Positions 12,924 to 49,064 of a DNA stretch of 49,064 nt are shown piece after piece; positions within the stretch are counted from its first letter, which is position 1, and each line of letters opens with the position of its first letter. The stretch lies in assembly GCA_030167865.1 (NCBI GenBank), contig JALAGF010001350.1, forward strand, positions 1 to 49,064. The letters run 5' to 3'. Made by a program: the position numbers and the translations under genes. The notes beneath the pieces are model-generated. The model was not told the origin of the DNA and did no database searches. It saw nothing but the letters and a program-made list of their open reading frames with translations. This DNA is from Craspedostauros australis (Eukaryota).

Positions 12924-14495
12924 TTACTGCAACCACATGCGACGCTTCCATGCATTCCACATCATGCTGAGCTCGTGCTGCGATCCACCCGCGATGGAAC
13001 TGTTCTCCTGCGCACGGCGGATCAAGTACGGCATCACCTCGTCGATTTGACCATACGGCAAGTACTTGTAGACGCGATATCCACGGCTCGCCAACGGATA
13101 CGACAGGGTGTCACTCATCCCGTACAGTTGCGCGAAGGATATGAAGGAATTCGATGGATCCACGGAATCTTGCATTGCGTCCACGGCCAACGCGATACTT
13201 TCGGCATTGTGCGTGGCACACATGATTTCGATCTGACCATGCTCGATGCCTTCCTGCAGCAAGTACCGCACGTTGTGATTGTAGCAATCATGCGTGTCCT
13301 GGATGGAATCATGGATCAGCTCCGCGGGTTCCGTCTCCATGTACGCGCCGCGTACCAATTTCGCACCAAAGCTGTATCCTTCCCGCTTGGCGCGTTCCAC
13401 ATCCTGCTGGATGCGATGTGTCGCGTCCTTGAGGTAGCATTGGTACGTATTGTAGACGACGGGAAAGGCGCCCGCTGCATTGTGCTGACGTTGCAATAGC
13501 ATCACGATATGGTCGATCGCGGGTTGGTACTTGGATTGTTCGGCATCGATCAGAAGACGCACGCCGTTCTGTCGCGCGGTGTCTGCGACCTCGCCGGCAC
13601 GTTTCAGCACGGTTTGGAGGAGTTCCATTTCTGCTGATGACAGTTGTGGCTCTGCAAGCTGCGACGAGTGGTGCGAACCCGTCATGCTTGGACACGCGAC
13701 GGGATCGAGCTTGCCATCGACGCTGCGCTGCACAGAATCGGCTGCATCTTGAGATATGATCTGCTTCAAACCATCGCCGGTGACGTCGCGGCCATCGTTA
13801 CTCATCGCGTCAAATCGCCGCCGGCTCTCCACAATGGCCGTCGAGACCCTGGCCAACAATTGGGGATTGGCCAATGCCGTCATTTTGACAGCGACGTACC
13901 CCCCATCCTGATTATTCGCCGCAGCCCGCACACACTTTTGGAAATCCGGAACGCGCTCGTCGCATTGCCGCTCAATTTCGGGCAGAGACTGTGTGGAGCC
14001 GTCGCTCTCCACGGCGTAATCCAAGATGCCGCCAATCGAATGTTGCTGCAACCTGCGCAGGACGGGCTGGATGCTGTGCTCATCTTCGCCGGCACAAAAG
14101 TGGCCAAAGAACGTGCGACGCAGGACTTCGTTTGTGACGCGCCGACCCAGAATCGTCCGCGACACATGCAGCAGGACCTCGGCATTGCGCACCAGAAATG
14201 GGAATTGGCACAGTTGCAAACAGACGGCGGCGCGCAACCATTCGCCGGTAGATCGATGCGCGAGGAGGCTGGCATCAATGAAGTTGGGTGTGTCGTCGTG
14301 ATTGGGATGCTCGATGCTGGCGAATGGACGCTGGAACGTGGATAGCGACTGCGTGGTGGCGGCCGTTGCGCTGCGTGTGGACGATGCCATTGTATGGAGT
14401 GGACGCGAGCGTAGGTATCGTGATGGCCGTATTGCTGTTGACCTCGATGCCCCTATCGTTGCTCGTGTTGCAGCGCATGCGAACCTGCTGCTCAT
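12924..14495 (-). CDS. PRODH: Mitochondrial proline dehydrogenase (proline oxidase)
   Basis: ILDYAVE, AVKMTAL, LLIDAEQ, YNTYQCYLKD, GAKLVRGAY, ATHN, FAQLYGM, YKYLPYG...PYLIRRAQEN. An Arg/Ser/Thr-rich presequence follows ATG 14495; the upstream ATG at 14597 is less likely. Confidence 0.95.
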   Translation of the reverse strand: MSSRFACAATRATIGASRSTAIRPSRYLRSRPLHTMASSTRSATAATTQSLSTFQRPFASIEHPNHDDTPNFIDASLLAHRSTGEWLRAAVCLQLCQFPFLVRNAEVLLHVSRTILGRRVTNEVLRRTFFGHFCAGEDEHSIQPVLRRLQQHSIGGILDYAVESDGSTQSLPEIERQCDERVPDFQKCVRAAANNQDGGYVAVKMTALANPQLLARVSTAIVESRRRFDAMSNDGRDVTGDGLKQIISQDAADSVQRSVDGKLDPVACPSMTGSHHSSQLAEPQLSSAEMELLQTVLKRAGEVADTARQNGVRLLIDAEQSKYQPAIDHIVMLLQRQHNAAGAFPVVYNTYQCYLKDATHRIQQDVERAKREGYSFGAKLVRGAYMETEPAELIHDSIQDTHDCYNHNVRYLLQEGIEHGQIEIMCATHNAESIALAVDAMQDSVDPSNSFISFAQLYGMSDTLSYPLASRGYRVYKYLPYGQIDEVMPYLIRRAQENSSIAGGSQHELSMMWNAWKRRMWLQ

Positions 14496-15474
14496 GGTGA
14501 TGTGTGATGTGATGTAGCGTGATGTGCAATGGCAAACTGTTCGCGTTGCTTTGTGTGCAAGCATGTGATTATGATGCGACGTGATGTGATGCTTCACAAA
14601 TTATGAGAAGAAAGATGGGAATGAATGGAATGAGGAACAGCAAGACGGAGGTGAGAAGCGGAAGGGAACTGGTGGGAATGCGGAGAGATGCATGGAAGGC
14701 AGAGAGGGCATGTGGGAAGCAGACACAGATAGAGCATGAGGCTGGCCACGATTGGTCCCCTCTTGACGCCTTGCTTCAACGGATGGAGACGTGTTGGAAG
14801 GAACATCGCTGATTCCAGTTGTCATCTTTGAGAACTTCTCGTCGCCACCTTCCGCACACACTTTGTGTGTGATGGTTTGTGTCGTTGCATTGCCTCTCAG
14901 GTTGTCTTGTGTCGTGTGCAAGTGTGCCGCCTGGTGTGCATGTTTGCGCACCCACGAAGCAGAACGGAGAAGAAGCAGAAGACAACGGAGTGTGGAACAC
15001 AAGAAGAGAGAGAAAGAGGGAGCCGGAAACGGAAGGAAAGATTGCGTGCGATAAGCCATTTTGATTGGTGAAGAAAAGGTATCTGTACGATTCAACCGAC
15101 CAAATAGTTTTAGCAAATGTCAAAGACAGAGACAAACGGCTGACTCACAGACGACAGAAAAGCTCAGATGGCCATGTGCTGACGTCACATCGAAATCTTG
15201 TGACAAGTGACGTGTCAACCGCACAAACGCAACGCATTGACACGACGACCATGGCGGTGATGACGATTGCGTCGTTGTTTCCTTGGTCGATGTCCTCTTT
15301 GTTGCGTTGTTGTGGTCGTTGAAGCTGCTGATGATCGTGCCGCTGTGCGCCTGTCCGTGCGGTTCTGTCTGCGTTGCGACCAATCCCATCTTCAGGACCA
15401 CCTTCTCGGACGCCATCATGTGCGCATAACACCAAGCAAGCAAGCAACGTCGAGCACCCCACTTGTATCCCACC

Positions 15475-17299: not shown

Positions 17300-20378
<3,079 letters not shown>

Positions 20379-23300
20379 ATGGCAGTGGCAACAGCGATAG
20401 CACCTGCGCGTGATGCAGTCAGTGATGCTTCCAATGATGCCAACAATGATGCCATCAATGATCCCGCGACGGATACTGTCAATGATGTGAACATCAAGGT
20501 CTCAGAACAGCTCCTGTTTGCGGAACTCCAGGACGTGCGAGACAAGATTTGTCTGCTGTCAACGAACGATACGAGTACGACGGCGGCGTCGCTTTCCAAA
20601 GCCCAACGCAGTCAAACTGTCCATCAGCTGAAGCAAATCCTCGACAAGTACCTGGCATATCCCACTCTGCTGGACAGGAGTGTGGAGTCCATCGTGCAGC
20701 AGATCTCCACGGCTTGCATTCAATGTCTGGAAGCTGTGCAGGAATGGAACCGGGAGACAGTGGAGTCTGGTGCCCTGCCGTACCTGCTGTCCGTTCTTTA
20801 CGCCCTCTGCAAGGTGCGAGGTCGCAAGCGGATCCAGAACTTTCTGTCTCATGAGGTTGGTCATCTCGAAGTTGTGTGGCGAGCGCTGTGTGCGATTGGT
20901 TCTGTTTCCGACGATCGTGGGATGGGATCAGATCAGCCACTTGCACAACCACACTCGCCATCACAAACGCAACAGCAGTTGAGTGCATCCAACGCGACTT
21001 CCAGTGATTCCTTTCCTCAGCACCCACCAGCGACTGCTGCTCCGGATCGGTGGGAATCCGTCTACAGCCTCTGGACCTGGATGGGAACGTTCAGTCTGGT
21101 CCCCTTTGATTCGAAGGTCGTCGTTGGCGATGGTGTCATTCACAAGCTCGTTGACCTGGGCATGCAACATCTGCAAGATGCTGGCCCGACGCGTGACATT
21201 GCCAGTTCTTCGTTGGCGTCCTGGTTAGCACGTCCCGATCTGCAGCGTGACGAGCTGGAACGATTCGTCACTTGGTCGCGTGAAGCACTGGTGGAGTTCT
21301 CGCGGACGAAGCGTCACATCTTCCGATGCATGGGCGTACTGCAGACCATTGTGGCATTCATGAAGGTGTCCAAGAGCGACCGACAGGATGTGCTGCGCGT
21401 TGCAAGTTCCTACTGGCAACCCATGAATGCCATCGCGGAATCAAACCCATCGAATCAGATCCTGCGCCGGTTGCTCGTCAAGTACTGGACCAGAACGGCC
21501 ACCTTGCACATGCCGCCGAGGTTGGTCGTCTGGCGGTATCAACGCGGCCGCCGTTCCCTCAAGAACAATCTGCGCAAGGCACAGCGCAATTCAACCACCA
21601 CGAATGCCACACAGCGTACACAGAAGCCACCCAAACAGCATGCTGCAAACGACACCAGCGACAACCTCTTGTTCGAAGTTCCCAGTGAAGTCGAAGACGT
21701 CATGGGTAGAATCCTCGAGTGCTTGCAAGATCCTTCCACATCTGTGCGATGGTCCGCGGCCAAGGGCGTCGGCAGGATCACAGAACGCCTTCCCGCCGTC
21801 TGCGCTGACGATGTTCTGGATGCCATCGTCGATCTCTTCGAGGACATCGAAAAGGACCATGCCTGGCACGGGGCTTGCCTGGCGCTGGCCGAGCTCGCGC
21901 GGCGCGGTCTGCTGCTGCCGCAACGGTTGGATGACGTTCTCCCCAAGGTCGTCGATGCCATGCAGTACGATCTACCGCGACGCCAGACAAGTGTCGGGAG
22001 CCACGTGCGCGACGCGGCGTGCTACACCTACTGGGCCTGCGCACGCGCCTACGATCCGTCCATACTGAAACCCTTCATCCCTGACATGAGCCGTTCCATC
22101 GTGGAGACCAGCTTGCTCGACCGCGAAGTCAACTGCCGGCGTGCGGCCAGCGCAGCCTTCCAGGAGATGGTGGGACGGCAGGGTGCGGACAACTTCAAGA
22201 ACGGTTTGGACATCCTGACATTGGCGGATTACTTCTCGCTCGGCAATCGCAAGAATGCCTACACCGCGATCTGCTGGAAGGTCGCTGAGTTTGCAGAATA
22301 CCGCCATCCTCTCACCGACAATCTGTGTCGCAAGAAGTTGAAGCATTGGGATGAGAACATCCGTAAGCTCGCCGCGACGTCGTTGGGAGGGTTGGTCCAG
22401 CTGGACCCTGCCTACTTTGCCAGCAACGTCATCCCCTACCTATTGGAAACCAGCGTAGACCCCAAATCTGTCATCTCGCGCCACGGCGCTGTCATTGGTC
22501 TTGCCGAAGTCATTTTGGGGTATGCGCGGAACGTCCCGCACTATCGCGATCATCTCTCCGATGCCACGCTGAAGGAGATTACCGACTTGGTGCCGACCAT
22601 CGAGAAGAGGCGCCTCTACAGAGGTAAGGGTGGGGAGATGATGCGATCGGCCGTCTGCCGACTCATTGAGTGTACTGCGACGGCAGAACTATCACTGACG
22701 GTGCCGCAGCAGGTCAAGCTGTTGGACACCATCGATGCCTGCATCCCGCATCCATCCGACGTGATCCAGAAGCAAGCTTGCGCCGGTCTTGGCAAGCTCA
22801 TGTCCACGTACTTCCAAGTTGGTCCAAAAGGACCGTCAGATCGACTGCAAAAACGAGTTGTCGACAAGTACGTCAAGCAAGTACGGACAAACACCAATCC
22901 AGCGGCAACACGTGGTTTCTCAATGGCGCTCGGATACTTGCCAGCCAAGCTGCTGGCACCGTCCGAGAAGGTCCTGGACACAGTGCTGGCAACGCTATGC
23001 CGCTTCGCCAAACCCAACGCGACGGTCGGCAACGAGAAGGATGCTGAGACACGGCGCAACTCAGTGCAAGCGCTCGTTAGAGTTTGCAACACCGTCGGGA
23101 TCAACGGGCAGGCACAAGCATATCCACTCAGTCATCTCCAAAGCAAGCAGATCGGTCATGTCTGGAACACGCTGCTTGCGGCGCTCGCGGATTACAACAT
23201 GGACCGACGCGGCGATGTTGGCTCGTGGTCGCGCATCGCTGCCATGGAGGGATTGGTATCCTTCGCGTCTCTCATTCAGCGTGATTGTGGAGCTTCCAAC

Positions 23301-24194
23301 GAGTATTTGAACCAAGAGAGAGTCCTCAAAATTCTATCCGGCCTGTTCCATCAATTCACAGGCAAGCTGGATGCGGTACGCGGCACCGCGGGCGAATGCT
23401 TGCAACGAGTAGTCAGGATGAAGGATCCGAGCTTTCCACATCTCCCCGACGCAGCTCTCCTGCAAGAGTTGTTCAACGCAGACGCAGGCGCAGACACGGA
23501 TACGGACGATGTGACACAGAACTGGTCCAGCCCATGCGTCGCCTTTCCAGTCGCGATGAAGGCAGCTTCCATCGATGCATTGTTCCATTCGATTGTTTCA
23601 GGCCTGATTATGAGTGCTGGTGGTTTGACGGAGAGCATATCGAAGGAGGCAATGCGAAATCTGATTCAATGGATCAAGGCGACGCAGGCCCTCGATCGTT
23701 TGAACATGTTGGGTGATTCGTTTCTTCGACACTTTGCAGAGCACAAGCACCAGGGGCATTTCATCAATCCGCTGCTGAAAACCATCCATCTGCTCATGGA
23801 CAAGATGTGCATGAATCGGTTGCTGGAAAGTACCGACTTCGCGCAGCGCCTATTGGCTCAATTGGAAGTGGAGGTGCAGAACTGCACGGACGTTACGCGC
23901 ATACTATCAATCAGCGATGTTGCGCTGGGGCTGCTGGCCGCGGAAGATCGAGATGCAACGTTACGGTTCGTTGTGGACGTGCTGAAACATCAATTCCCGC
24001 GCGTGCGTCGGTACATGGCGGAGCAACTGTACGTGCGGTTGCTGGAGATTCCTGATCTTGGGCGCGATGACGATGCGCAGATGGAGGCATCGGAGTACCT
24101 GCTATCGACCTGTTGGGATGCCGAGATGAACGAAGACGAATGTGAGCGGATGGCTGAACAGGTGACCACGTTGTTGAAGGATGGATCAAGCTGA
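20379..24194 (+). CDS. TBCD: Tubulin-specific chaperone D (tubulin folding cofactor D), intronless
   Basis: YALCKVRGRK, VRWSAAKGVGRIT, AWHGACLALAELARRG, HVRDAACY, LLDREVNCRRAASAAFQEMVGRQG, DYNMDRRGDVGSWSR, GGLTES. Confidence 0.96.
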   Translation: MAVATAIAPARDAVSDASNDANNDAINDPATDTVNDVNIKVSEQLLFAELQDVRDKICLLSTNDTSTTAASLSKAQRSQTVHQLKQILDKYLAYPTLLDRSVESIVQQISTACIQCLEAVQEWNRETVESGALPYLLSVLYALCKVRGRKRIQNFLSHEVGHLEVVWRALCAIGSVSDDRGMGSDQPLAQPHSPSQTQQQLSASNATSSDSFPQHPPATAAPDRWESVYSLWTWMGTFSLVPFDSKVVVGDGVIHKLVDLGMQHLQDAGPTRDIASSSLASWLARPDLQRDELERFVTWSREALVEFSRTKRHIFRCMGVLQTIVAFMKVSKSDRQDVLRVASSYWQPMNAIAESNPSNQILRRLLVKYWTRTATLHMPPRLVVWRYQRGRRSLKNNLRKAQRNSTTTNATQRTQKPPKQHAANDTSDNLLFEVPSEVEDVMGRILECLQDPSTSVRWSAAKGVGRITERLPAVCADDVLDAIVDLFEDIEKDHAWHGACLALAELARRGLLLPQRLDDVLPKVVDAMQYDLPRRQTSVGSHVRDAACYTYWACARAYDPSILKPFIPDMSRSIVETSLLDREVNCRRAASAAFQEMVGRQGADNFKNGLDILTLADYFSLGNRKNAYTAICWKVAEFAEYRHPLTDNLCRKKLKHWDENIRKLAATSLGGLVQLDPAYFASNVIPYLLETSVDPKSVISRHGAVIGLAEVILGYARNVPHYRDHLSDATLKEITDLVPTIEKRRLYRGKGGEMMRSAVCRLIECTATAELSLTVPQQVKLLDTIDACIPHPSDVIQKQACAGLGKLMSTYFQVGPKGPSDRLQKRVVDKYVKQVRTNTNPAATRGFSMALGYLPAKLLAPSEKVLDTVLATLCRFAKPNATVGNEKDAETRRNSVQALVRVCNTVGINGQAQAYPLSHLQSKQIGHVWNTLLAALADYNMDRRGDVGSWSRIAAMEGLVSFASLIQRDCGASNEYLNQERVLKILSGLFHQFTGKLDAVRGTAGECLQRVVRMKDPSFPHLPDAALLQELFNADAGADTDTDDVTQNWSSPCVAFPVAMKAASIDALFHSIVSGLIMSAGGLTESISKEAMRNLIQWIKATQALDRLNMLGDSFLRHFAEHKHQGHFINPLLKTIHLLMDKMCMNRLLESTDFAQRLLAQLEVEVQNCTDVTRILSISDVALGLLAAEDRDATLRFVVDVLKHQFPRVRRYMAEQLYVRLLEIPDLGRDDDAQMEASEYLLSTCWDAEMNEDECERMAEQVTTLLKDGSS

Positions 24195-32600: not shown

Positions 32601-32949
32601 TGGACGCACACACTCCACCAATTGATGTGCTTGCCAATGTCCTTGTGATCTCCGTTCTGCGTTGCTTCACACCCACTTCGTTTTGATTTGATTTGGTTGG
32701 TCCATCCTGATCCTCTCTTCTTCGAACTTTGTTTTCCTCATAAAATCCAACAGGAGGCGAGGAACATCACTCCACTCCACCACAACCAGCAACCACAACA
32801 ACAGCAACAACCACAATCACAACCACAACCACAACCACCTCATTCCCCCGTTACCAATACCAAAAAGCAAGACCAATTGTAACAGCAATACAGCAACGCA
32901 GCTATCATAAAATACTTCCAAATCATATAATACAAATCAACAAACAATC

Positions 32950-34945
32950 ATGTGCAATCCAAACGTCGCTCTTGCCAGTAGAAAGCCAAAGGTGGTCGCC
33001 CGAGAGCAAGTCCCTCTCGCGCAGAACATCACGCTGCCCACCCCATCACCCCCTACCAATCCAACTGGAGGAGGACTCCCAGCGTCTAGCACGACGGAAA
33101 TCGCTTGCCAGGTTCTGAGGTCGCTCTTCTCGAAGCACCCGACATCAACGGATGCGTCTCATCCTGTTGGAAGCAGCATCGCAGTCCCAGCGAATGGCGC
33201 TGCTGCCGCCTTCCCCTCCTTTGGCCATGGCGGGATTTGCTTCATCCCCGCCATCGTCAGCCCTGTGGATCACGCCGGTAACGCTGTGAATCCATCACTA
33301 CCAGCAGCAGCAACAACAGCAACTGCGGCCTCAGCTGGAGCTGCAACGGCCACGACCACGCTAGCCTTTCCCGACGTCAAGGCTACATGGTCGTACTCTG
33401 CCATTCCATCCGGCCCAGTGACCATCGGATCGGACGCGACAGTGCAAGCCGTGGTGCCCGTGGAGAAGACCAAGCCAAAGCGCCGACGCCGCAAGCCCCA
33501 GAAGCCCGGCAAGACCGCCAAGAACCAGGAGCGCCACTTTGTGGTCCACAACTACACCGACCGCGCCGACGCCGTGGACATGGACGCCCACGAAAAGTCC
33601 AGCAAGAACCGCAGCGGGTCGTCAACTTCCTTCCCCATGAAGTTGCACTCCGTGCTGGAGCAGGTGGAGCAGGCTGGATACACGCACATCGTCTCATGGC
33701 AGCCACACGGACGCTGCTTCGTCATTCACAAGCCAAAGCAATTCGTTTCCGAGGTGATGCCGAAGTACTTCCGCCAAACCAAGCTCACCAGCTTCCAACG
33801 CCAGCTCAATCTATACGGCTTCAATCGCATCACGCGGGGCCCAGATGAGGGAGGATACTACAACGAATACTTCCTGCGCGGCAAAGCCTTTCTGTGCAAG
33901 AACATGATGCGCACCAAAGTCAAGGGCACCCGCTTTAAGGCCGCCAGCAGCCCAGAGCTCGAGCCAAACTTCTACACGATGGTAAGTCCGCAATCGAAGT
34001 ATTCCTCCATGCTCTCATTCCTCTGGGAGTTTTCGCCTTGCTCCTTTCCTTCCTCTTCATGATTGTGCGTTCCATTGAGCAGACGTGCACTCTAACGCAA
34101 CTAACCCTTCCCTTTGCACCCATGCCAAATACGTACTTGCGTATTTTCATTCATATTCGGATTTGTTCTTGCAACTGCCTATTCGTACTCGTACCTCCAA
34201 CGCCATTCGCAACGTCACCCACCTTTCCTCTCAATTCCTACAGAAGCCAATCGCGGTCCGAGCCCCCACCCCACCAGCGCTGCCGGTGAAGCTCACGCCG
34301 ATCGCAGAGGACCCATCCGCGTCTGCAGCACAGCCCAAGTTCGTGCTGACCATTCCAAACACGCAAGGGCATGGCTCAACCGCTCACACGGTCACCCCGC
34401 ACCCTTCATTGAACAGCCTGCTATTGACCGCCCATCCCAGCCTTGGCAACGGTCACCACCAACAATACACGCTAGCAACTCCCTCTATCGCTACATCCGA
34501 CCCCAATATCGCATTCACCAGCCTCGCCCACCAGGCCTCTCCTGCAGAGAATGCTAACCAAGTGCATCTGAGCATCGACGCGAACGCCACAGCGAGCAAC
34601 AGCCAGCCCGCCGCCCACAGCAACGCGTTTCTGAACCAAACTTTCGCCCTTCCTTCCGTGTCCAGCGTAGCATTCCTGCAGCAGCCAGCTGCCCAGCCGG
34701 CCATGCACCATCACGTGTACCAGCCAGCGGCAACGGCAACGTTCGCAGACGCAATGGACCCTCCCGTCGAGGATATGTTCAACCAAGAAGACGGACACGA
34801 TGACGAGGAGCACATCCTCGACTTCGTGAACACTTGGCACACGGGAAAGCACGAAGAGCACGAAATGGAGGTTCCGGAGTGCGCAGATAACGTGAATGAC
34901 TCGCAGATGGGCGACATGCTGGACCAACTCTTGGCGGAGGTATGA
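32950..34945 (+). CDS. Heat-shock transcription factor (HSF-type DNA-binding); exons 32950-33981 and 34244-34945
   Basis: FPMKLH, IVSWQPHGRCFVIHKP, SFQRQLNLYGFNRI, GGYYNEYFLRG, EPNFY. Phase-0 intron 33982-34243 (GTAAGT...ACAG). Acidic C-terminus. Confidence 0.94.
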
Positions 34946-35857: not shown

Positions 35858-38800
35858 ATGAGACAAGGGAGCCTTTCCTTCACGGACCCGCCGTCGCAGC
35901 ACATGGGACAGCATCAGCAACATGGCGACGCCCACTTCAACCGCAGCATCGACTCCAGACGCAAGGCCGTATCGTGCTGCGACTGCCGCTGCTGCTGCGA
36001 CGCGAGTCCCATGCAGCAATGCCTGCAGCGCGTCAGCCACCAGATCCGCGGCACCGTGCTGTGGAAGAGCCTCAACGTCTTCTTCACGTTCGTGCTGCTG
36101 TTCGGCTCGCCGTTGCAAACGCTGGCGGCGCCCAAGAGCTGGGATCTGGGATTCGACATCCTCTACACCACCACGCTGTCCTTCTTCTTGCTCGACATGC
36201 TCTTCAGCTTCCTCACGGACCGCGAGTACTTCTCGATGTGTCGCCGCACGCCGTTGGACAACGCGGTGGCTCAGTCGACGCCCTCGTCGTGGCGATGCAA
36301 GTTCGGCTCCTTCAACTTCTGGTGCGATGTCATCTCCACGGCGACGTTGGTGGCCGACATATCTTACGTCAATCGAGAAGGCTTCGAGATCAAGCGCCTG
36401 GACATTGAGTTGAATCAATTTGGGTTGCCGGTGAGTTGTGGGACGGTTGTGAGAAGGTTGTGAGACGGTGATGTTCTTGTGCTTGTGCTTGTGCTTGTGC
36501 ATATGCGTTGGTGTTAGTATTGATGTTGATATTGATGTCTCTGCTGTGGCCATTCATCACTTCACCATTTCCAAACCTCTCACTCACACACTTGCATGCA
36601 ATTGCATACACTCGAATCCACTTGCATACTCTCGAATCCACTCACATGTACAGACAAACTTTGGCGAACAAATCAATCCACCAATCCCCATCGCGGTCGA
36701 TTCGGAGATCCTCGTGGTCATCGCAAGAGCCGCCCGCATTGCTCGCTCGGTGCCCTCGTCCACCGTGGTGGAGGTATCGTTGTGGCTCAACCTCTACTGG
36801 TACATCGAACGCCTCATGCCGGGATTTTACATCGGCAAGATCCAATCGTGGCGACAGAGGAAGCAGAAGGAGGACGAGGCTGCCAAGAACCCACCCACGA
36901 GACGCCCGGTTGATCTCAAGGAATCCGTCTTCGCCGCCAAGGCCAAGCAGCTGCAGGAGGCCAACGAGAAGCAGCAAGGCTTCATGACGGCCTCTCTGCG
37001 CTCCGGCATGCGCTTCCTCGGTCTGGCACCGGACTCAAACCTCGAACTCAAGCGCAACATGGCCGCGACCAAGATCCAAAAGGCATGGAGGCGCAAGCAG
37101 ATGAGGCACAGCGCCATCCACGATATTGGTGCTCACGCAGGGGAGGACAACGAGAGCTCCTCGTGGCGTGGGCGATTCCGTCGATCGTCCGCCCTCATCC
37201 AACGGGTGTTTGGCAAACGGTCCTCACACCCACGCAACAGCCAGGCCTCCGAAGGCGGTTTGGAAAGCGCGCGCAACGCACAGAACGTCGTCGAAACCAA
37301 ACCAGAGTCGCAGCTGGGTACGGCCATGGGAGAACTGACGGGCCAACGATTGGCGCTCGGGGTCCTCTTCGGCCTCATCCTCACGAGTCTCCTCACGTAC
37401 CGGCAGGCCAATTCCACACCCGCCACAACCATGGTCATGCTGCATGGCCAGACCATCGCCAACGCCAATACGGATCACATCCAGCTGGCGTTGGGCGCGG
37501 CGCGCAACAGCTCCGCCACGGACCTCTTCTACTTCAAGAGCGATCGCTTGGATGACGGCGATACCAATATCGAGCTCGATTTCAAGGACAAGAAGGACAC
37601 CGACGATCTGCGCGATCGTGAAAAGCTCGCGATCACCGGTACGTTGGTTTGGTGTTTGTTGGTTCCTAAATGGCAATGTCAATCGTCGTTCGCGAAACTT
37701 GCATTGTTGCCGTTGGCGGTGCTGATCAACTCGTCCAGTTCGTTTCTCAACTCCACCATCCAACTCACTTTGTCCACCGTTCCCTTCATGTCCGTTCGTT
37801 TATCCAATTACGAATCGACCACTCTACCATACACATCTTCTGCGATACCGTTCATCATCATCATCATCATCATCAGTCATGTCCGATCTGGGAGTCACAA
37901 CAGGCATGTTTATGTACAGATCGCAACGTGAAGATGAGGCGCTCGTCGAGCTGCTCTCAACAATCTTCGTGCTTCTCATGTGGTTCCTGGGCGTGACGGC
38001 ATTCGCGGGACCAGTCATGACGTTGGTCATCACACCGATCGAACGCATGGTCCGCCTGCTGCAGATGCTCATGCTCGACCCGTTGGGTTACCAAAGCTCT
38101 TCGCGTTTCAAGAAGTTCATGATCGAAGATGAGAAGCTCACGAAGGATTCGCGTTGGACCAAGGAGGTGCTCAAGGGCATGGAGACGTCCTTCCTCATGT
38201 CCACCATCCTGCGTATCGGTTCCTTGATGAAGGTCGGTTTCGGAAGTGCGGGAGTGGAGATCATCCGTAACAACCTGTCCGCAGGGCAGAGCACCAACAC
38301 GCTTTTCCTTCAATCCGAAGGTTCCACCGTGTCCTGCATCTTCTTGTTTTGCGACATCCGCCAATTCACCGACGCCACAGAGTCGCTGCAGGAGGAGGTG
38401 TTCGTCTTTACCAACCGCATCGCCGCCGTCGTGCATTCCAACTGCCACGCCTACGGTGGGTCCGCCAACAAGAACGTCGGCGACGCCTTCTTGGTGAGCT
38501 GGACCCTCGGCGAAGACAAGAAAGCGGTCGGTCATCATTACGGCGGCGGAGGCAATGAGCACTCCCTGTGCGCTAAGCACAATCAAGCCGACAAGTGCAT
38601 GCTCAGCGTGGTGCGCATTTGCATCGCATTGCGCTTCGATGACTTCTACCTCGAACCATTGTCCATCCCAGCACGCAATGCGCTGCTATCGAAGGTGAAG
38701 AAGCGCAGCGGTCCCGTCGTGCAGATGGGATTCGGTCTGCACGCCGGCAAGGCTGTTCAGGGTGCCATCGGTTCCCAGCGTAAAATCGATGCCACGTACG

Positions 38801-39630
38801 TCTCAGAGGCCGTGGAACGTGCGGAGTTCCTGGAGTCTTCCACGAAACTGTACGGCCTCCCGATGCTCATGTCGGACACATTCCACAGCCTCCTCCACTC
38901 CAGCAACCGACGTCGGTGCCGTAAGATCGATCAGATCATGTTCGAGAACGATGACGAAGAAGAGGAGGATGATTTCGACACTGGCGACCGGATGGACATG
39001 TACACGTACGACATGGACATCGGTGCGCTGAGCAGAAGCAATCCCGGGTTGCAAGGCGACGGACACGACGCGTTCGGCGGAGGCGGCGGATTGAACCGTC
39101 AGCAGTCGACACGCATCGGTCCCGGCGGCGGCACCGGGCGCAAGGTCCGCAACCGCCGCAAGAGCATGCTCGGATTCACCGACATGGGCAAGAGCGAGGA
39201 GATGAAATCCGGCCCTGCAGCATCCATGGAGACAGGAACCGTCACGAGCGCGACCACCAAGAGCACCGACGGCGTCAGCTCCGCCTTCTTCATCGGCGAC
39301 AGCGGCGACAACGCCAAGGGCGACGCGACACGTGGTGGACGAGCATCCGCGCAGAAACCGGAGCTGCCGACGGGTCCCAAGCCGTACAGCGCCAAGGACT
39401 GGCTCAAGGACGACATGAGCAAGATCCGCCAACGATACACAACCGTCATGTTCCAAAAGTTCAACACAGGCCTCGAAGCGTTCTACTCAAAGGATTGGGA
39501 CAGAGCCCGACAATGCTTCGAGAGCGTGCAGACCGATTTCCGCGACGGACCATCCGAATACTTTTTGGGACAAATCCTCAAGAACAATGGTCGACCACCA
39601 CGGGGATTCCAGCCGTACGGCAGGGCTTGA
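35858..39630 (+). CDS. Ion-channel-type class III adenylyl cyclase-like protein (voltage-sensor-like TMs, IQ, cyclase, TPR), paralog 1; exons 35858-36430, 36654-37638 and 37877-39630
   Basis: TM helices with FWCD and S4-like ARAARIAR; IQ motif AATKIQKAWRR; KVGFGSAG; FCDIRQFT, NKNVGDAFL, GFGLHAG, GAIGSQRKIDATY; C-terminal TPR-like FYSKDWDRARQCF...DGPS. Two canonical frame-restoring introns. Confidence 0.9.
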
Positions 39631-39954
39631 TCGGTGAATTGGGAATGCAATTTTATCAGCCGTGGCAGCAGTGCATATAATAGTTCGATAGCTGAATGAA
39701 CTAGTGCAATGTTCTACTGTGTCTTGTATCCTCGCATGTGCGATAATAGCTTGGAGTATGAAATCGCGCAAGTCTACGTTTTGTTATTGAGTGGTGCAGA
39801 TATAATAGTTGGTTGAGATGATGCTGATTCCTTTCAGCCCTCGATGCTCTGCTCGTCTTGTTGAGGCTGCGCGACGGGTATGCCACTCCGTAGTATCAAC
39901 GGAGTACGTAGACATGCTCGAGCAGAGTCTTCCACTCCAATTCACCGTTCGACT

Positions 39955-40401
39955 CTACTCCGTCCGCTCGCTGACGTAGATCAAATGATACCCAAACTGC
40001 GTCTTGATGGGACCATGCACCACCCCCACATCATCGTTGAAGACCACGGTGTCGAACTCTTTCACCATCTGTCCAGGCCCGAACTGACCCAAGCTGCCAC
40101 CCTGACGGCTCGATGGACAGGCCGAGTACTTCGTCGCGGCCTCGGCGAACTTGATGGGGCTGTTGTCGATCTCCGCCTTGAGGTCCTCCAGCTTGTTCTC
40201 GGCCTCGGCTCCGCCCTTGATCAGGATATGCGACGCTGTGGCCTTCGTGGTGAAGCGCTTCAGGAAGTCACCGAAGAAGCCATGCAGCTGCTGCGTGTTG
40301 CTGCGCTGCGCAGAACGGTGGTGGATGGGCTGGAAGGCCTCGACGGCCATCAGCGACCAGCTGCACGCGAAGAGCACAAGGAGATGGATGAGGCGGTTCA
40401 T
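39955..40401 (-). CDS. Parvulin (PpiC-type) peptidyl-prolyl isomerase, plastid-targeted
   Basis: ATASHILIK, FAEAATKYSACPS...GGSLG.F.PGQMVKEFD, GPIKTQFGYHLI. Signal peptide VEA|F followed by a transit peptide. Confidence 0.95.
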   Translation of the reverse strand: MNRLIHLLVLFACSWSLMAVEAFQPIHHRSAQRSNTQQLHGFFGDFLKRFTTKATASHILIKGGAEAENKLEDLKAEIDNSPIKFAEAATKYSACPSSRQGGSLGQFGPGQMVKEFDTVVFNDDVGVVHGPIKTQFGYHLIYVSERTE

Positions 40402-40816
40402 GATGTTTCCGTTGAAACTGTTGCGGACTGTGAGCGTTGCAAAGAAGGTTGCTGATGCTGATGTTGATGTTATGAAGAGATGAGCGGCAAGGGGAGACGC
40501 CTTGACACCACATGACGTCAAAAGAGAGGCGCAACGAGGCGAAGGGAGGAACGTGTGAGGAGGTGGGAACAAGCGTCCCATTTTGTGGAAAGATACTTCA
40601 ATCACGGATATTACGGGACTCATTAACGTGACTGAACCTTTGGGTGTCTGTGACGATGGTGAGTACGCGTCGTAATGCGGCACCACGGCATGGATTGAAT
40701 GTAAAATCAAGTACGAAGAGCATACCTCTGCTTCGATGGTCGGAAGTACCCTTACTCTACAAACAGTATGCCATGCCATGCCATGCGATGCCCTGTCATG
40801 ATGTAAATAAAGCGCA

Positions 40817-43800
40817 CTATGGTATGCTGTAAGGCCGGAAATCACGTGGCGGTTTGCCATCATGTTTCTTGATTTGCGCCACAAAGTACTTGGAGGGTCC
40901 ATCCTCGAAGGTGTCCAGAATGTGCTGAAAGCATACCGCAGCGTTGTCCCAATCCCTGTTGTAATATGCCTGCAGACCTTGATCGAACTTGTGAAAGAAG
41001 AGCCCGTGGACGTACCGATCGCGGATGCGCTTCATGTCGGACCGGTGCCACGAGTTGAGGTTGTACGGCAAGGGGCCCGTCGGGAGGCGCAATTCGGCCA
41101 TGCCTGCGCCGTTGTTGGCGTTGTTGAAGTCACCGGCCTCGGAGACGTTGGAGCTGACGCTCGTGCCGGCGTGGTGGCCGTGGTGCGACGTCGGTCCGTC
41201 ACCGCCGTTGGAAGCCAGCTCTTCGCTCGGGTTCACCTTCTGGATCATGCTGCGCCTTCGTCGCATGCCGCGTGCCGAGGTCTGGGGACGCCGGTTCAAC
41301 CTCTTGCCTTGCAGCGTGATGGATCCATCGCGGATTGAATCCGTGTCGGAGTGGACGTCAGATCCGGTGCCGGGTCGACGGAACGGCGTGCGGAACAGTG
41401 CGTCGATGTCCATGTCGAACGTGAACAGGTCCATCCTATCGCCGGAGGGTTCGCCAAGGTAGCCGTCGTCCGCATCCACGTCCTCGTCGTCATCCAGCAG
41501 CATCACCTTGTCCACCATGCGGCATTTCTGCCTCGTCTTGGGATGCAGCAGCTCGTGGAAGCTGTCGGACATGAGCATCTTGACACCGTACTTCTTGGTC
41601 GACGACTCCAGGAATTCCGAACGCTCCACCGCCTCCGAAACGTACGTCGCGTCGATCTTGCGCTGCGAACCGATGGCGCCTTGCACTGCCTTGCCGGCGT
41701 GGATGCCGAATCCCATCTGCACGACGGGTCCCGGCCGTTTCGACAGCTTGTTGAGCAAGCGCTCGCGTGCAGCCTCGCTCATGGTTTCGATGTAGTACTT
41801 GTCATGATGCAGCGAGATGCAGATCTTGATGACGGAAAACAGAGCCTTGTCGGCCTGGAAGTTCTTGGCTCGCGCGATGCGGCCACTGTTGTTCCTGCCG
41901 GCTTCAGCGTTGCTGCCGTCGTCCAGGATCCAGCTCACGAGGAAGGCATCGCCCACGTTCTTGTTGGCCGATCCACCGAAGGCGTGGCAGAAGGAATGCA
42001 CGACGGCTGCGATCTTGTTGGTGAACACGAAGACTTCCTCCTGCAGGCATTCCGTGGCATCCGTGAATTGCCGAATGTCGCAGAACAGGAAGATGCATGA
42101 CACGGTCGTACCTTGCTCCGTCAAGTTCAGCATGGTGTCCGATCCCTTTTGCAGATTCTTGCGAATGATCTCGACACCGGCGCTGCCGAAGCCGACCTTC
42201 ATCAAGGAACCGATACGCAGGATGGTGGACATGAGGAAGGAGGTTTCCATCCCGCGCAGCACTTCCTTGGTCCACCGCGTGTTGCGAATCAGCGTGTCTT
42301 CCTCGGCCAAGAAGCGCTTGAAACGCGACGTGCTCTGATAGCCCAACGGATCCAGCATGAGCATGCCGAGCAGCCGCACCATGCGTTCGATGGGCGTGAC
42401 GACCAGGCTCATGACGGGTCCCGCGAAGGCCGTGACGCCCAAAAACCAAAGCAGCAGAACGAAGAGGGTCGCCGATATTTCCGCCCATGCCGAGTGGACA
42501 CGTTCGGAGCGGTAGGCGAACTGTCCCTTCGTCTGCTTGTCGTCGGTGTCGCTGACCGTGATGATGAGCTTCTCGCGGTCCCGCAGGTCGTCAATGGAGG
42601 CGCCCTTCTCGCGGACGTCGTCGAATTCCAGCACCGTCTCATTCTGCAGCTGGTACCAGAAGAGATCATGCGCGGAGGTCCGCTTGGCCGCCTGCAGCGC
42701 CTGGTGTTGGAATGCCGTGTGCTGCGTCTGCTTGTGCAGGACGACCATGGCGTTGAGTCGCGACGATTCCTCCTCGGAGTAGGTGAAGAGGACCGTGAAC
42801 ATGAGCGCCAGGACGATGCCTATGGCCACGCGCTGTCCCGTGAGATCCCGCATGTCGCTACCGATCTGCGATTCGCGTTGCATGGTGGCGCCGTTGCGCG
42901 TGGACGTGGCAGCCGTCGTGACGGTGGCCGTGCCGTTGCGCATCTGCCTGGAACGTCCATTCCACGAGGCCCCCCATTCATCGTCATCTTCCTGGCTGCG
43001 GGCTGCCCGACGCCTGGAACGATTGTAGCGACGAAACGAACGCTGGATCTGCATGGCCGCGATGTGACGCTGGATCTGCACCTTCTTGCTGGGCACGAGA
43101 CCGACGGCACGCAGCATCCACTGCAGCGTGGAAGCCTCGCGCTCGCACTTGACGAGGGAGAGGAGATGCAGCTGCGTTGTGCGCCACGTGACGCGCGTAC
43201 GCGGTAGACGTGAGCGGCTGTGCTCGCTGACGTGGTCCGAACTGAACTCCATGTTGAAGTCGTTGCCGGACATCATGGTGTTGCTGGGGTTGGTGTCGTC
43301 GTCTAGGGCGCTGTCGCGTCGTCGCTTCTGCTGTCGGTTGCGGCGCCATTGGCAGATGTGCCAGACGGGGTTGAGGAGGTGGCTGTTGCGGAAGATCCAG
43401 AAGAAGTCGAACATGGAGGATCGTTTGACGACCGTGTGGGATCGGACGTAGCGAGCGACGCGCAAGGTGCGGAAGATGATGACGAGGAGGTCGCGCTCCA
43501 GCTCCACTGGTTCGAATCGTGTGATCTTGGTGAAGCCGCTTGTCTGTGAATGAGGAATTGTGCGTCAGGAGGTGTTGGTGCATTGCATGAGTACGAGTAC
43601 AAGCAGGTAGAGGGTGAGTATAGGTGCATGTGCAAACAAATACCACACAGACATGCAACAACATGCAATCCCATACAGACATGCAACAACATACAACAAC
43701 ATGCAATGCCATATAGACATGCAATGACAAGCATTGAAGAAAGAATGACAAGCAAACTCACCGGAACACCATCCAACCCCAACCGAATGTGAATGGAGGG

Positions 43801-44259
43801 ACTCTGAAAGTGATCCGGATTGATGTAGGAAATGTCGTATAGGATCATGCCCGTCGATATGAAGTCGCACCAGAAGATGTAGCTGCCGATGCCGTTGGCC
43901 AGATTGCACTGGAAGTAGTTTGACTTGCACGCGAGACGAAAGCATATCTCGAGCACGAAGAAGAGGAAGGTGATGATGAAGACGATGTCGTTGGTGGCCG
44001 TGGTCGTCGTGAGCAGCAGCTGCTGGATCTGCGTGCCGAAGAGCAGCACGATGGTGAAGAAGGTGGCCAGCAGCCTCCACGCGCGGTGGTCGATGATGCC
44101 CTCTATGATGCCCACGGCTCTGCTGGCGCAGGTCTGGTACCACGGCGGCGTGCGCGGGAACATGTGCCGCGAGGAGTGCTGGCTGTTGGACTGTCCGCGG
44201 AAGGACTGCGAGCTGTAGTTCAGCCCCGCGCCGTCGTACGTGTCTCTTCGGTTCGGCAT
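40817..44259 (-). CDS. Ion-channel-type class III adenylyl cyclase-like protein, paralog 2; exons 44259-43762 and 43543-40817
   Basis: Same architecture as paralog 1: FWCD, FRTLRVARYVR, AAMQIQRSFRRY, KVGFGSAG, FCDIRQFT, NKNVGDAFL, TPR. Phase-0 intron 43761-43544 (GTGAGT...ACAG). Confidence 0.9.
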
Positions 44260-46093: not shown

Positions 46094-47720
46094 GCTGGTG
46101 CCGATCTATTATATCAATTCGAACTACAGAGAGAGACAGAGAGGAATCTGCTCAACGTGCTCCATGAATAGTGCGAGTATGATACGATTCGAATAGTCGT
46201 ATGTGTGAATACGTATGAGTCTCGCTGCGTTTGGAATGAATGAAAGCCGTTGTCGATGTTGTGGTTACGACGGATGCAGTTGCAACCGAGTCGGCGATGT
46301 TGTTGCGTTGGGTGGAGATGATGACAAATGTGGCGGTTTCTTTTCTGTTCGCCGCATTTCTGATCCCGCAAGAATAGACAACATGGATCGAATCGAAAGG
46401 GCCTGTTCAGGAGAAACGGTAATTTAAAATTTACTGTCTATATTTGGCGTCACCGGTTGACGGATTGACACAATTACTGATGGAGTGCGGAGTAACACAA
46501 TCACACAACTTTTCCACTTTCAGGACAAAACGTCAGTTGCACAGCGAGGGTCAAGCCACAACACTTCATCGAAGGACAAATGTCAAAAGGCTGCGCTGTT
46601 GTGTGTGCGACTGAGCACACACAACACAATGTTCCGCAGCTTCGCATCTTGATTCGTTGCTTGCGGAAAGCCATCCATGCGCGAGGCACAGAGTGGAACA
46701 CGGGCTTGCTGTCTCTGCATGCCGGGGTCCAAGCCTGTTGCGAACTTAGGCAAGAGCGCAGGACCACTCTGCCCAGCTTCCGCTGTGTGTGGCTTCCACA
46801 CAACCTGTGGGGGTGGGATAAATCTTTCGTGCCATGTGCGAAGGGCTGGTTGCTGCTTGCAGGAAGACACAAAGGGACAATCACCACAACACAACCCGTC
46901 AGTCGCTGCAAATGAAGATGTTGCTTGCAGGGTTTGTGATGTTTCTTGCCTTCACGACAACAACACACGGCGAAATTGTGGCCGAAAGGACACTTGCATC
47001 ACTTCTTCGCGCGTGTTCTTGTGCTGTCTTTGTTTCGTTCTCGCAAAGTCACAAGTCGGCCGTGATAAAATGACTCATGAACGCGAACAGTCGTTGCACT
47101 TAAAGGTGACGAACCCGGAAAGGTGGGAGTTGTCAAATTGGGGGCAAAATGCGGTACTGTTATGAAATGGCGTGGAAGAGATGGAATCACGATTTCCAAC
47201 GGCGGAAAAGCAACTCGCAGGAGCGACACCGACATGTCCAGCACAGGAACCGGAACAAAAGGGGTGTTCCACCCAACCCCGACCCGCCGCCAAAGCAACA
47301 TAACCTTAACCGCACGTCGACGTGGTGTCAGTGCAGAGGTCGCAGTCCAGTGAACGATCGATCCCTGGGTCATGATTGCGCATCTATTGCTTGCACTGTG
47401 TGGCAGACACCACCACGTTTCCAAGTTGGCACCGCCATCGCCATTGTCGGAGCAAAGCAAAGCAACGCAACCAGCCAGCCAATTGTGTCCAAGGCTTGCT
47501 TCAATCAGCGCGTTCTCCTGTGTTGTGCACAATCGGCTCTTCTCTCCCATCTCTCCATTCTCCATCTGCTCTTGATTCATAACTCCAACTCCAACTCCAA
47601 CTGAGATTTCAACTGCGAGTTCAACCTCACACCAGCTCCACTCGGCCACGCACGAGTATAGTACGAGGACGCTCACAACGGGCATCATCAGCAGCAATAT
47701 CATCATCAGCATCATCATCA

Positions 47721-48936
47721 ATGCCAACATCTAGCATGTGGAAACAGCGCGGATCGGATGCGTCTGTAGTTCTGCCATCGTTGACGCCGTTGGACAGACG
47801 GTCTTCGCACTTGAGGTCATCGACGCATTCAAGGTCGTCACCGCGCCAACGCTTGAGACGCAAGTCATCACTCGTCGGCGGCACCTCCACCAAAGACTTC
47901 GAGGATGACAACACAGTCACCACAGCCGAGAACATCAGCAGCACCGTTGACGAATCGAAACATGAAATATATAACGTCAACGATGATGATGATGATGACG
48001 ACGACGACGACGATGGCCAGGGTAGCGGCAACTGCGACCACAACAACATCGAGAACGATTGCTTGGCAGAGACTAGTGGCGATGCAACTGCTCAGGGAAA
48101 TGCTGGAGTCACACCGGCAGGTGCTTTCCACCACAACAAGATCCATTTCGGCACCTTCGTTGGACGTGAGGACGAGCTAGAACGATTGAACTCCATCTAC
48201 GGCCGCATCTGCCGCAAACCATTGAAGACATCCAGCAGAAATGGCCACAACAAGGACATCCAGATCGTCCTGATTCATGGATACTCCGGATCTGGCAAGT
48301 CGGCGTTGGTGGACCGCTTCCTCGCACGGCTCAACACAGATGGATGCACCCCATCGAGTCCTGCTGTCAAAAACGAAGAGGAAGGTGCGGATACTGGCGA
48401 AGGAGGCATGGGTGCGGCAAAGAAGAAGCGACGAGCGGACTCTCATCCGTGCCACTACGGGAAGGGAAAGTACGATCAGTACAATACAGGGGGCAATCTC
48501 TCCGCCATTGCGGATGCCCTGTCGCACTTCTTCCGCAACCTTGCGGCATCTGGCGATGATGCAGAGTGCCAACGAATCCGAATGAAGATGAGTCGGAGGA
48601 TGGACAAGAGACGGCAGGACCTCGTCCGAAGAGTCATCCCGGGACTCTCGGCTGTGATGGGAGACGCTCCGGAGGATGGGACAGCGGACGGTACCCGACA
48701 GAGCTTGGGAAGCATGAGTATCGGGAGCATGATCCGGAGCAACACGAACGCAAAGATGCAGGGCGACGAAGCATCGCTGGCTATTGGATCAATGTGTACA
48801 GCGAGCATCTTTGAGGCTGACGGGGTTGCAAACACGAACTCCAGAAGCAAGGAGTGGGCTCAGCTCGTTTACACATTCAAGGTGATCCTCAAGGCCATCT
48901 GCACGGATGGTCGTCCACTCGTGCTGTATCTGGATG
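47721..48936 (+). CDS. STAND/AAA_16-type P-loop ATPase, first exon only; the gene continues beyond the window
   Basis: FVGREDELERL, Walker A GYSGSGKS, GKYDQ, and Walker B RPLVLYLD cut by the donor GTGAGT at 48937. Confidence 0.88.
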
Positions 48937-49064
48937 GTGAGTGAACGGGGAGTGAGAGGAATGTATGCTGCACCAATTCCGCATCCGGTTGTTCGCGCCC
49001 AGTTCGCATCCGTGCCGTATCTGTTGAAGCGTATTGGTATCTGTGATCTTCTTGACCTGCATGT

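Follow-up and report, generated by a model that had tools for sequence, protein, structure and literature searches.

We describe here two genes of the diatom Craspedostauros australis, called A and B, which lie in opposed orientation on contig JALAGF010001350.1 of assembly GCA_030167865.1; its 49,064 nucleotides (positions 1 to 49,064 of the forward strand) are referred to below as the window. Judged from their sequences, both genes code for members of the adenylyl cyclase alpha (ACalpha) family, in which a voltage sensor is fused to a cyclase. In the structural models their N-terminus is, by its predicted fold, a voltage-sensor domain, and no recognisable pore module was found in either protein. 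The explanation that we favour, and hold to be rather probable, is that A and B are anciently diverged diatom members of this family in which a pore-less sensor would act, through the sixth transmembrane segment and a helical transducer, on a dimeric cyclase-homology domain.

The two proteins have the same layout, as derived from hydropathy, translation and motif mapping: four N-terminal transmembrane (TM) segments, S1 to S4, then an IQ motif, two more transmembrane segments (TM5 and TM6), the sequence KVGFGSAG, a class III cyclase domain and a tail resembling a tetratricopeptide repeat (TPR). An earlier reading, made by a model from the letters of the window (hereafter the sequence-only reading), had listed these features for both genes, and every motif of its list was found and mapped to window coordinates. 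Chance can be set aside as their origin since 329 relatives at E<=0.001 retain them. The FWCD of S3 occupies amino acids 154-157 in A and 129-132 in B, and S4 carries three charges in A (RAARIAR) and four in B (RTLRVARYVR). The cyclase motifs FCDIRQFT and NKNVGD are common to A and B, and so is the tail motif GLxxYYxxDWxxAxxCF. The positions of all these elements are as follows.

35858-36430, 36654-37638 and 37877-39630 (stop codon included), forward strand: the three exons of gene A, from open reading frames and GT..AG sites.
36071-36758, forward strand: gene A voltage-sensor domain S1-S4, split by intron 1; assigned on motifs, with fold and homology evidence from the orthologous domain.
36071-36133, 36158-36214, 36311-36370 and 36705-36758, forward strand: gene A S1, S2, S3 (FWCD) and S4 (RAARIAR).
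37074-37094, forward strand: gene A IQ motif, IQKAWRR, conserved in diatoms (Pfam IQ E 0.017, 15.3 bits for a cut-off of 20.3).
37335-37403 and 37939-38013, forward strand: gene A TM5 and TM6, separated by an ectodomain that spans intron 2; from hydropathy, translation and the model of the gene B equivalent.
38014-38331, forward strand: gene A cytosolic helical linker, probably the PF26726 (Helical_RasGEFs) region, with KVGFGSAG at 38230-38253.
38332-38928, forward strand: gene A class III cyclase-homology domain; in its block RKIDATYVSEAVERAEFLE (38779-38835), Glu and Phe occupy the places of the expected Asn and Arg.
39376-39627, forward strand: gene A TPR-like C-terminal tail; TPR_2 match under the cut-off, motif conserved family-wide.
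44259-43762 and 43543-40817 (stop codon included), reverse strand: the two exons of gene B, from open reading frames, with a junction supported by the Staurosira ortholog P0001.
43433-44082, reverse strand: gene B voltage-sensor domain; assigned on motifs, the AlphaFold2 model of an ortholog matching voltage-sensor domains.
44082-44020, 43986-43930, 43881-43822 and 43492-43433, reverse strand: gene B S1, S2, S3 (FWCD) and S4 (RTLRVARYVR).
43028-43048, reverse strand: gene B IQ motif, IQRSFRR, from motif mapping.
42398-42835, reverse strand: gene B TM5 (42835-42767), predicted alpha/beta ectodomain and TM6 (42484-42398), from AlphaFold2 model me8fe9568986b.
42098-42397, reverse strand: gene B helical linker, with KVGFGSAG at 42199-42176, from model and translation.
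41492-42097, reverse strand: gene B cyclase-homology domain, with block RKIDATYVSEAVERSEFLE (41662-41606); Pfam 24.0 bits, bPAC E 1.7e-7.
40820-41086, reverse strand: gene B TPR-like tail, from the motif; no Pfam TPR match.

Gene A (forward strand, 35858-39630) has three exons and codes for 1103 amino acids, gene B (reverse strand, 44259-40817) has two exons and codes for 1074 amino acids, and both are intact. The three introns are all of the GT..AG type and measure 223, 238 and 218 bases; the first intron interrupts the identical codon in A and B, within the S3-S4 loop. Across the gene B junction, P0001, a full-length transcript-derived protein of Staurosira, is continuous in frame; it is 62% identical to exon 2 of gene B and 59% identical to the whole gene B protein. 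For the second intron of gene A, the acceptor at 37876/37877 was preferred since it brings back the ITV...D.G.T.G strand that is conserved in the homologs, and an acceptor at 37903/37904 (1094 amino acids), with which the protein has a nine-residue gap relative to the homologs, was dropped. The motif counts, the tree and the reciprocal-residue count given below were made with the 1094-residue model; the nine additional residues of the 1103-residue model belong to the ectodomain and leave the motif counts unaffected. The introns of gene A contain simple repeats: a TGCTTG-type microsatellite in intron 1 (36471-36500) and, in intron 2, a CAT run which leads straight into the acceptor (simple repeat at 37843-37882).

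To place A and B among known proteins, a full-length diatom profile was compared with 1.84 billion cluster representatives; it matched 12,421 proteins at E<=0.001, among them 1205 that passed E<=1e-30. One of the distant matches is a Blepharisma stoltei protein (P0244, E 5e-96) related to proteins of Stentor, Stylonychia, Paramecium and the chromerid Vitrella that have precomputed matches to PF00520 (Ion_trans), PF00211 (Guanylate_cyc) and PF26726. A further one, P0206, is related to proteins of chrysophytes and Pinguiococcus and, further off, of dinoflagellates. Alignment of 15 distant relatives showed the same order of parts, with conservation of VGFG[ES]AG and of a DW..A...DGPS tail. The Atlas clusters nearest a diatom member were an apicomplexan one under the name 'Adenylyl cyclase alpha, putative', with a score of 0.96 and 232 of 256 features, and a ciliate one. 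Precomputed matches to PF26726, which the Atlas names Helical_RasGEFs, exist for each of the 120 gene B relatives listed and for the ciliate members; the domain was assigned to A and B indirectly, via these relatives, the linker being 76% identical between A and B. The sequence-only reading had equated the layout with that of the ciliate and apicomplexan ACalpha fusions, and the homology, which extends along the entire length, supports it. Its attribution of the DNA to a diatom was likewise reasonable: the named relatives of gene B are all diatoms (Staurosira, Nitzschia, Seminavis, Fistulifera, Cylindrotheca and Amphiprora). As to the proposed C-terminal TPR, one TPR-like motif does exist, and the DW..A..CF...DGPS tail is conserved in A, in B and family-wide, but the Pfam TPR_2 match is weak in A (E 0.012, 16.1 bits for a cut-off of 27) and there is none in B.

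Paramecium, Tetrahymena and Plasmodium are the organisms in which the fusion family was originally described, according to later papers that cite this work (PMC5746546, PMC10651576, PMC12414865). Its presence in stramenopiles was published in 2025, in a paper whose supplementary list, in the available portion, places Phaeodactylum PHATR_46904 beside Plasmodium ACalpha (PMC12223298). The sequence-only reading spoke of an uncharacterised transducer; the family and its stramenopile members are already in print, but beyond the supplementary entry of PMC12223298 we found no description of the diatom subfamily in the openly readable literature. What is new here is therefore limited to the diatom-specific changes.

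A few side observations were made among the relatives. P0349 and P0352, obtained through the ciliate query P0244, carry the phosphodiesterase domain PDEase_I (PF00233) together with PF26726 and have no cyclase domain listed, and P0460, obtained through the ochrophyte-type query P0206, carries PF00233 alone; the helical transducer PF26726 may then be fused also to enzymes that degrade cyclic AMP (cAMP). The Atlas cluster 'Cya1 protein family', at rank 12 (score 0.85 to the diatom protein), is 83% viral (Uroviricota named), with Guanylate_cyc in 100% and Ion_trans in 17% of its members. In P0001 a stretch of ~60 residues is imperfectly duplicated in tandem immediately ahead of TM5 (residues ~355-470), and the diatom profile matched this protein in two stretches; an assembly artefact and a real repeat are both possible.

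The N-terminal domain of the Staurosira ortholog was modelled with AlphaFold2 (predicted local distance difference test, pLDDT, 79.7; predicted template modelling score, pTM, 0.71). When this model was compared with 48,161 solved chains by the VIA structure search, 30 of the 31 rows at Z>=8.0 were voltage-sensor-bearing proteins, the exception being CcsBA, and the top row was the voltage-sensor domain of Ci-VSP (Z 11.1, root mean square deviation 3.8 A, 124 residues aligned, 20% identity). With Foldseek, all 46 listed rows were voltage-sensor proteins (Ci-VSP, NavAb, Kv4, Nav1.7, HCN or similar). An acidic S2 residue three positions past an aromatic, an acidic S3 residue and two invariant S4 Arg are present in all 19 aligned diatom sequences. 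The diatom S1-S3 alignment matched the N-termini of the distant relatives in hhalign with a probability of 99.4% (E 5.7e-21, 115 columns), and 15 of 30 distant relatives gave a Pfam Ion_trans match at E<=0.01, five of them reaching the cut-off. In the Atlas language-model look-up, taken as a lead only, 26 of the 30 feature matches of the N-terminal part carry Ion_trans. The sequence-only reading had made its proposal depend on the N-terminus modelling as a voltage-sensor domain, which is what it does. We infer that A and B sense voltage.

The question of a pore has another answer. The 15 relatives with an Ion_trans match are matched within profile positions 3-126 of 241, that is in the S1-S4 half. 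What follows S4 was modelled for gene B (residues 385-650, 99-row alignment, pLDDT 82.1). In that model the interval between TM5 and TM6 is filled by an alpha/beta ectodomain of ~90 residues, made of two helices and four strands (alpha-alpha-beta4) and predicted with a pLDDT >95. Residues 127-179 of the model form a single continuous helix of 53 residues, TM6 plus its cytosolic extension, followed by three more helices. No P-loop is present between TM5 and TM6 in this model: the sole GXG-type motif, KVGFGS, is found ~67 residues past TM6, in the cytosolic linker, where it forms the loop that joins the last two helices. Such a location argues against a selectivity filter, and the sequence-only reading, which was right to record a GXG after the last TM segment as a trait of the family (it is described as such in the accessible part of PMC3283738), was mistaken in calling it pore-like.

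Were A and B genuine fusions of an ion channel and a cyclase, which is what has been proposed for Paramecium, they would themselves conduct K+, with VGFG as the filter. This would account for the family-wide conservation of VGFG[ES]AG, and an intrinsic K+ conductance has been attributed to the purified Paramecium enzyme, the GXG after TM6 being noted as well, in the portions of PMC5746546 and PMC3283738 at hand. However, the cytosolic position of the motif, the lack of a P-loop in the model and the arrest of the Ion_trans matches at position 126 all speak against it, and the family was regarded, in the available text of PMC3283738, as not yet classable as a functional K+ channel. We consider conduction by A or B to be highly improbable. 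In the fold searches made with the TM5-ectodomain-TM6-linker model, a pore domain is absent from the listed rows, an absence which does not exclude one.

The same searches bear on the ectodomain. Foldseek returned nothing at E<=0.001, and VIA returned only weak Cache-like and helical matches, all with Z<=6.7. For the TM-ectodomain-TM part the best VIA matches were Cache/dCache chemoreceptor domains, with Z of 5.2-6.0, within noise. Scanning the tail, linker and S4-TM5 pieces against Pfam with a limit of E<=10 revealed no HAMP and no Cache. A and B could in principle be ligand-regulated receptor cyclases, the ectodomain binding an external cue as in the bacterial two-TM Cache/CHASE-HAMP cyclases and the voltage sensor being secondary: a confidently modelled alpha/beta fold is set between two TM segments and TM6 is prolonged as a long helix, its best matches are of the Cache/dCache type (5wbf, Z 6.0 with 112 residues aligned; 9koo, Z 5.7; 6dtm, Z 5.6), and the lower Atlas ranks include bacterial dCache/HAMP cyclases. 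But none of these Z values reaches 8, and the conserved charges of S4 and their counter-charges argue that the voltage sensor is in use, so that we regard regulation primarily by a ligand as improbable.

Several points weigh against taking A and B for voltage-sensor/cyclase fusions. Pfam Ion_trans was found in none of ten full-length diatom relatives at E<=1 and in none of the exon pieces of the window, and a profile of 19 diatom S1-S4 segments retrieved, from the sequences of solved structures, no channel but only TatA at E 2.5. The Foldseek E-values for the voltage-sensor model were all 0.11 or worse, and VIA Z values below ~13 can, for helical bundles, reflect a common arrangement; the structural argument rests on the uniformity of the list of matches and not on the score. 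The two models, one of the Staurosira ortholog and one of a gene B fragment, are both of monomers. Counted as the longest series of basic residues spaced three apart, S4 reaches only 3-4 in diatoms, the ciliate and ochrophyte sets having a median of 8, and the IQ match stays under the Pfam cut-off (E 0.017 in gene A). No intron-bridging contig was found in one sequencing run, the RNA nature of which is a guess and which gave contigs identical to 39119-40451 and 40712-41431. Finally, three catalytic residues are missing: the canonical Asn and Arg and, by and large, the Lys. With these missing, 'cyclase' may be wrong as a function.

The cyclase domain is itself recognised without difficulty when profiles are used. 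Pfam Guanylate_cyc is marginal, with 21.8 bits in A (cut-off 21.9) and 24.0 bits in B, but a profile of 25 full-length relatives matched bPAC (E 4.8e-10) and OaPAC (E 1.8e-6), class IIIb cyclases of solved structure, and gene B alone could be aligned, residue by residue, with bPAC (E 1.7e-7). Both metal-binding Asp residues are kept in A and B and can be aligned with those of bPAC; all 120 diatom relatives (of 120) have the metal-Asp motif and likewise K..GD, which in A and B read FCDIRQFT and NKNVGD. The adenine-specifying Lys (the K of NKNVGD) and Thr (in KIDAT) align with the corresponding K and T of bPAC, and the Thr is found in nearly all the diatom relatives. The transition-state Asn and Arg of helix alpha4 (N-x3-R) are replaced by Glu and Phe, as seen in a gapless alignment of AVNVAARLE of bPAC with AVER[AS]EFLE. 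Scored by pattern, the residue triplet is Thr/Glu/Phe in 99 of the 120 diatom relatives, as it is in A and B, Arg being found in none and Asn in three of the 120. At the position of the phosphate-binding Lys of VKG, the diatoms have 14 Lys, 23 Arg and 83 other residues (n=120), Glu in gene A and Leu in gene B; this position was set by a regular expression and not by structure, the alignment of gene B with bPAC ending before it.

The distribution outside diatoms is different. Ser/Asn/Arg is found at the triplet positions in 42 of 70 proteins of the ciliate set, and Lys at the VKG position in 52 of 70. Paramecium P0306 aligns with bPAC across the whole domain and has N, R and the VKG lysine intact. 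The non-diatom ochrophyte-type members have retained the Asn and have already Phe in place of the Arg. Since Paramecium keeps the Asn, Arg and Lys that diatoms have lost, synthesis of cAMP by the latter is not assured. The proposal of an electrical-to-cAMP transducer, which assumes an active cyclase, is undercut in both genes and in essentially the entire diatom clade; any cAMP output would have to come from non-canonical residues or else be weak. In our estimation the chances are roughly even that a protein of the A/B type forms a cyclic nucleotide fast enough to be of physiological use.

Three readings of this altered active site were weighed. In the first, the domain is that of a pseudo-cyclase: it would bind metal and ATP and make no useful cAMP, and would serve as a nucleotide-binding or dimerising scaffold, the output passing through partners, for example of the TPR-like tail. 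The substitution of Glu for Asn and of Phe for Arg in both genes, the near or complete disappearance of Asn and Arg and the common loss of the Lys among the diatom relatives speak for this reading, as does the intact set of residues in Paramecium P0306. The diatom stem is moreover very long (3.72 changes per column, with a support of 100 in the Shimodaira-Hasegawa-like approximate likelihood ratio test, SH-aLRT), which fits a functional change. The metal-Asp motif and K..GD, however, are under a constraint so strong that no relative out of 120 has lost them, and the adenine Thr is kept nearly everywhere, which is unusual for a dead enzyme. Active class III cyclases with non-canonical residues are known, and they count against this reading too. 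A pseudo-cyclase appears to us possible but rather unlikely.

In the second reading the arginine has been relocated: the Arg or Lys that precedes K-I-D (GSQ-R-KID) would stand in for the alpha4 Arg, and A and B would be genuine voltage-regulated adenylyl cyclases. A reciprocal pattern speaks in its favour. Among 298 members, 187 have a basic residue before KID together with an aromatic in alpha4, and 52 have a non-basic residue there together with the alpha4 Arg; both are present only in P0238 (K..KR), which branches between the two groups in the tree. In an independent-contrast test on a 358-row tree, however, only 7 independent pairs could be formed, the second site hardly ever differed within them and the median p was 1. 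The reciprocity is thus the product of a single deep event, or of a few such events, and gives no statistical support for coupling. As the change of Asn to Glu and the loss of the Lys are also left unexplained, we hold the relocation to be unlikely.

In the third reading A and B are C1-like subunits, which supply the metal Asp pair and need a heterodimer partner with the Asn, Arg and Lys, as C1 and C2 do in mammals. The half-site logic of the mammalian C1/C2 cyclases is well established, and a domain that keeps the Asp pair and has lost Asn, Arg and Lys resembles a C1-type half-site. But the substitutions are identical in A and B, which can not complement each other, the Arg is found in 0 of 120 diatom relatives, and the adenine Lys and Thr, normally on the C2 side, are retained; the need for such a partner is thus quite doubtful. 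For the diatom clade as a whole we tentatively suggest, with more doubt than confidence, that the ancestral fusion was converted into one of two things: an enzyme with a rebuilt active site (Glu for the ribose Asn, Arg taken from the strand before K-I-D), or a pseudo-cyclase that would sense voltage and Ca2+/calmodulin.

Other diatom traits accompany the altered catalytic residues. An IQ-like motif upstream of TM5 is present in 66 of the 98 diatom relatives that cover the region and in none of 53 ciliate-set and 55 ochrophyte-set proteins. This motif and the short S4 (3-4 charges) are, among the sequences compared, diatom-specific. In a quick maximum-likelihood tree of 48 rows, from which the stem length quoted above was taken, the diatom clade is monophyletic (SH-aLRT 100). 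The derived catalytic form coincides with the gain of the IQ motif and the shortening of S4, and it has been kept in at least two ancient paralog lineages.

A and B belong to different lineages of this kind. They are identical at 490 of 1029 aligned residues (47.6%); by region, the voltage sensor has 39% identity, the helical linker 76% and the cyclase domain 69%. The description of the pair as two diverged paralogs, with divergent sensors and conserved cores, is accurate, but at 69% the cores were wrongly called near-identical. In the 48-row tree gene A falls in a 6-row clade (SH-aLRT 99), itself inside an 18-row clade (SH-aLRT 98) that does not contain gene B, which groups with the Staurosira protein. 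The duplication thus goes far back within diatoms, and gene A is not a recent local copy of gene B in spite of a spacing of ~1.2 kb. Class III cyclases are obligate dimers. The A/B heterodimer put forward in the sequence-only reading is sterically plausible; since both genes carry the same substitutions, it would nevertheless restore none of the missing residues.

To return to the explanation favoured at the outset, the starting signal would be the movement of S4 in the pore-less S1-S4 domain. The IQ motif of the cytosolic linker is a candidate calmodulin site where Ca2+/calmodulin would probably modulate the signal, and an external cue might also do so at the TM5-TM6 ectodomain. The relay would be TM6, the helix of which is predicted to run straight into the helical transducer (PF26726) with its conserved VGFG turn. 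The putative output is the class IIIb cyclase-homology domain, of which each protein has one and which would dimerise, and the TPR-like tail comes last. Calmodulin binding, dimerisation and an enzymatic output of A and B we infer from these features. The mode of action would be that of Ci-VSP or SLC9C1 and not that of an ion channel.

Enzymes coupled to a voltage sensor are rare, Ci-VSP and SLC9C1 being the classic cases. Ci-VSP (PDB 4g7v, 4g80), which is the best structural match both in Foldseek (rank 1) and in VIA, has a sensor that drives an enzyme without a pore and is in this the working analogy for A and B; it differs from them by its PTEN-like phosphatase module, by the lack of extra TM segments and ectodomain and by being a monomer. 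SLC9C1, the sperm Na+/H+ exchanger (PDB 8pcz, structural match at Z 8.2), also has its voltage sensor on an effector which is not a channel, although this effector is a transporter and the domain order is different. The cyclase domains closest in sequence among solved ones are those of bPAC and OaPAC (PDB 5mbh, 5m27, 5x4t), which share the Thr at the adenine position; bPAC is unlike A and B in having the canonical N..R and VKG, a BLUF sensor and a soluble form. The bacterial two-TM receptor cyclases (Cache/CHASE-HAMP) resemble A and B by the succession TM-ectodomain-TM, from which an unbroken helix leads to a class III cyclase, and by the weak Cache-like fold matches, but A and B have no Pfam match to HAMP or Cache, carry an additional N-terminal voltage sensor and have PF26726 in the place of HAMP.

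Within the family itself, the Paramecium adenylyl cyclase and the Plasmodium and Toxoplasma ACalpha have the same parts in the same order: S1-S4 with a basic repeat in S4, two TM segments, a GXG after TM6, PF26726, one cyclase domain of class IIIb and a TPR-like tail. They differ from the diatom proteins on the points detailed above: the Paramecium enzyme keeps the Asn, Arg and VKG Lys where diatoms have Glu, Phe and mostly no Lys, and the ciliate-set members have the longer S4 repeat and no IQ-like motif. Vegetative cells of pennate diatoms have no flagella. The 'bimodal' Ion_trans-plus-cyclase proteins of Phytophthora parasitica (PPTG_13136, PPTG_13761) are, like A and B, stramenopile combinations of a sensor and a cyclase, and are reported in the accessible part of PMC12223298 to lack homology to a pore helix; they are likened to A and B by the architecture described there and differ in being flagellar.

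The pair was said to be convergent, and the opposed orientation is real, but A and B are not adjacent: a gene for a parvulin-type peptidyl-prolyl isomerase, not part of the cyclase pair, is found between them.

39955-40401, reverse strand: parvulin-type peptidyl-prolyl isomerase gene with a hydrophobic N-terminus (Pfam Rotamase_3 1.4e-21, Rotamase 6.2e-21).

The N-terminus of this protein is like a signal peptide, and the gene has the deepest contig coverage of the region in the sequencing run mentioned above. Directly upstream of gene A, at 32911-34062 (forward strand), is a gene with a heat shock factor (HSF)-type DNA-binding domain (2.8e-23). Farther away are pieces of a Ty1/copia-type retroelement (3936-6600, forward strand; Pol_BBD 1.6e-12, a retroviral SH3-like domain and RVT_2 5.8e-8) and three ordinary nuclear neighbours: a proline dehydrogenase gene (12924-14600, reverse strand, 1.3e-62), a tubulin-folding cofactor D gene (20241-24194, forward strand, 3.5e-99) and a gene for an AAA_16 STAND-type ATPase (47583-48944, forward strand, 4.7e-10), which heads toward the end of the window.

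The accessible parts of PMC2654917 and PMC6509283 describe fast Na+/Ca2+ action potentials in diatoms, and no recombinant member of the ACalpha family had been functionally characterised for voltage dependence according to the available text of PMC10651576. A protein that combines a pore-less voltage sensor, a cyclase-type domain and an IQ site is a candidate link from the electrical events of diatoms to downstream signalling. Because the canonical Asn, Arg and Lys have been lost across the diatom clade, it would be wrong to annotate or model genes of this type as if they were ordinary adenylyl cyclases, a caveat that touches, for example, work on CO2/cAMP signalling in diatoms. If the reading of A and B as rebuilt cyclases or pseudo-cyclases is true, they would tie the action potentials of diatoms directly, at the molecular level, to second-messenger signalling.

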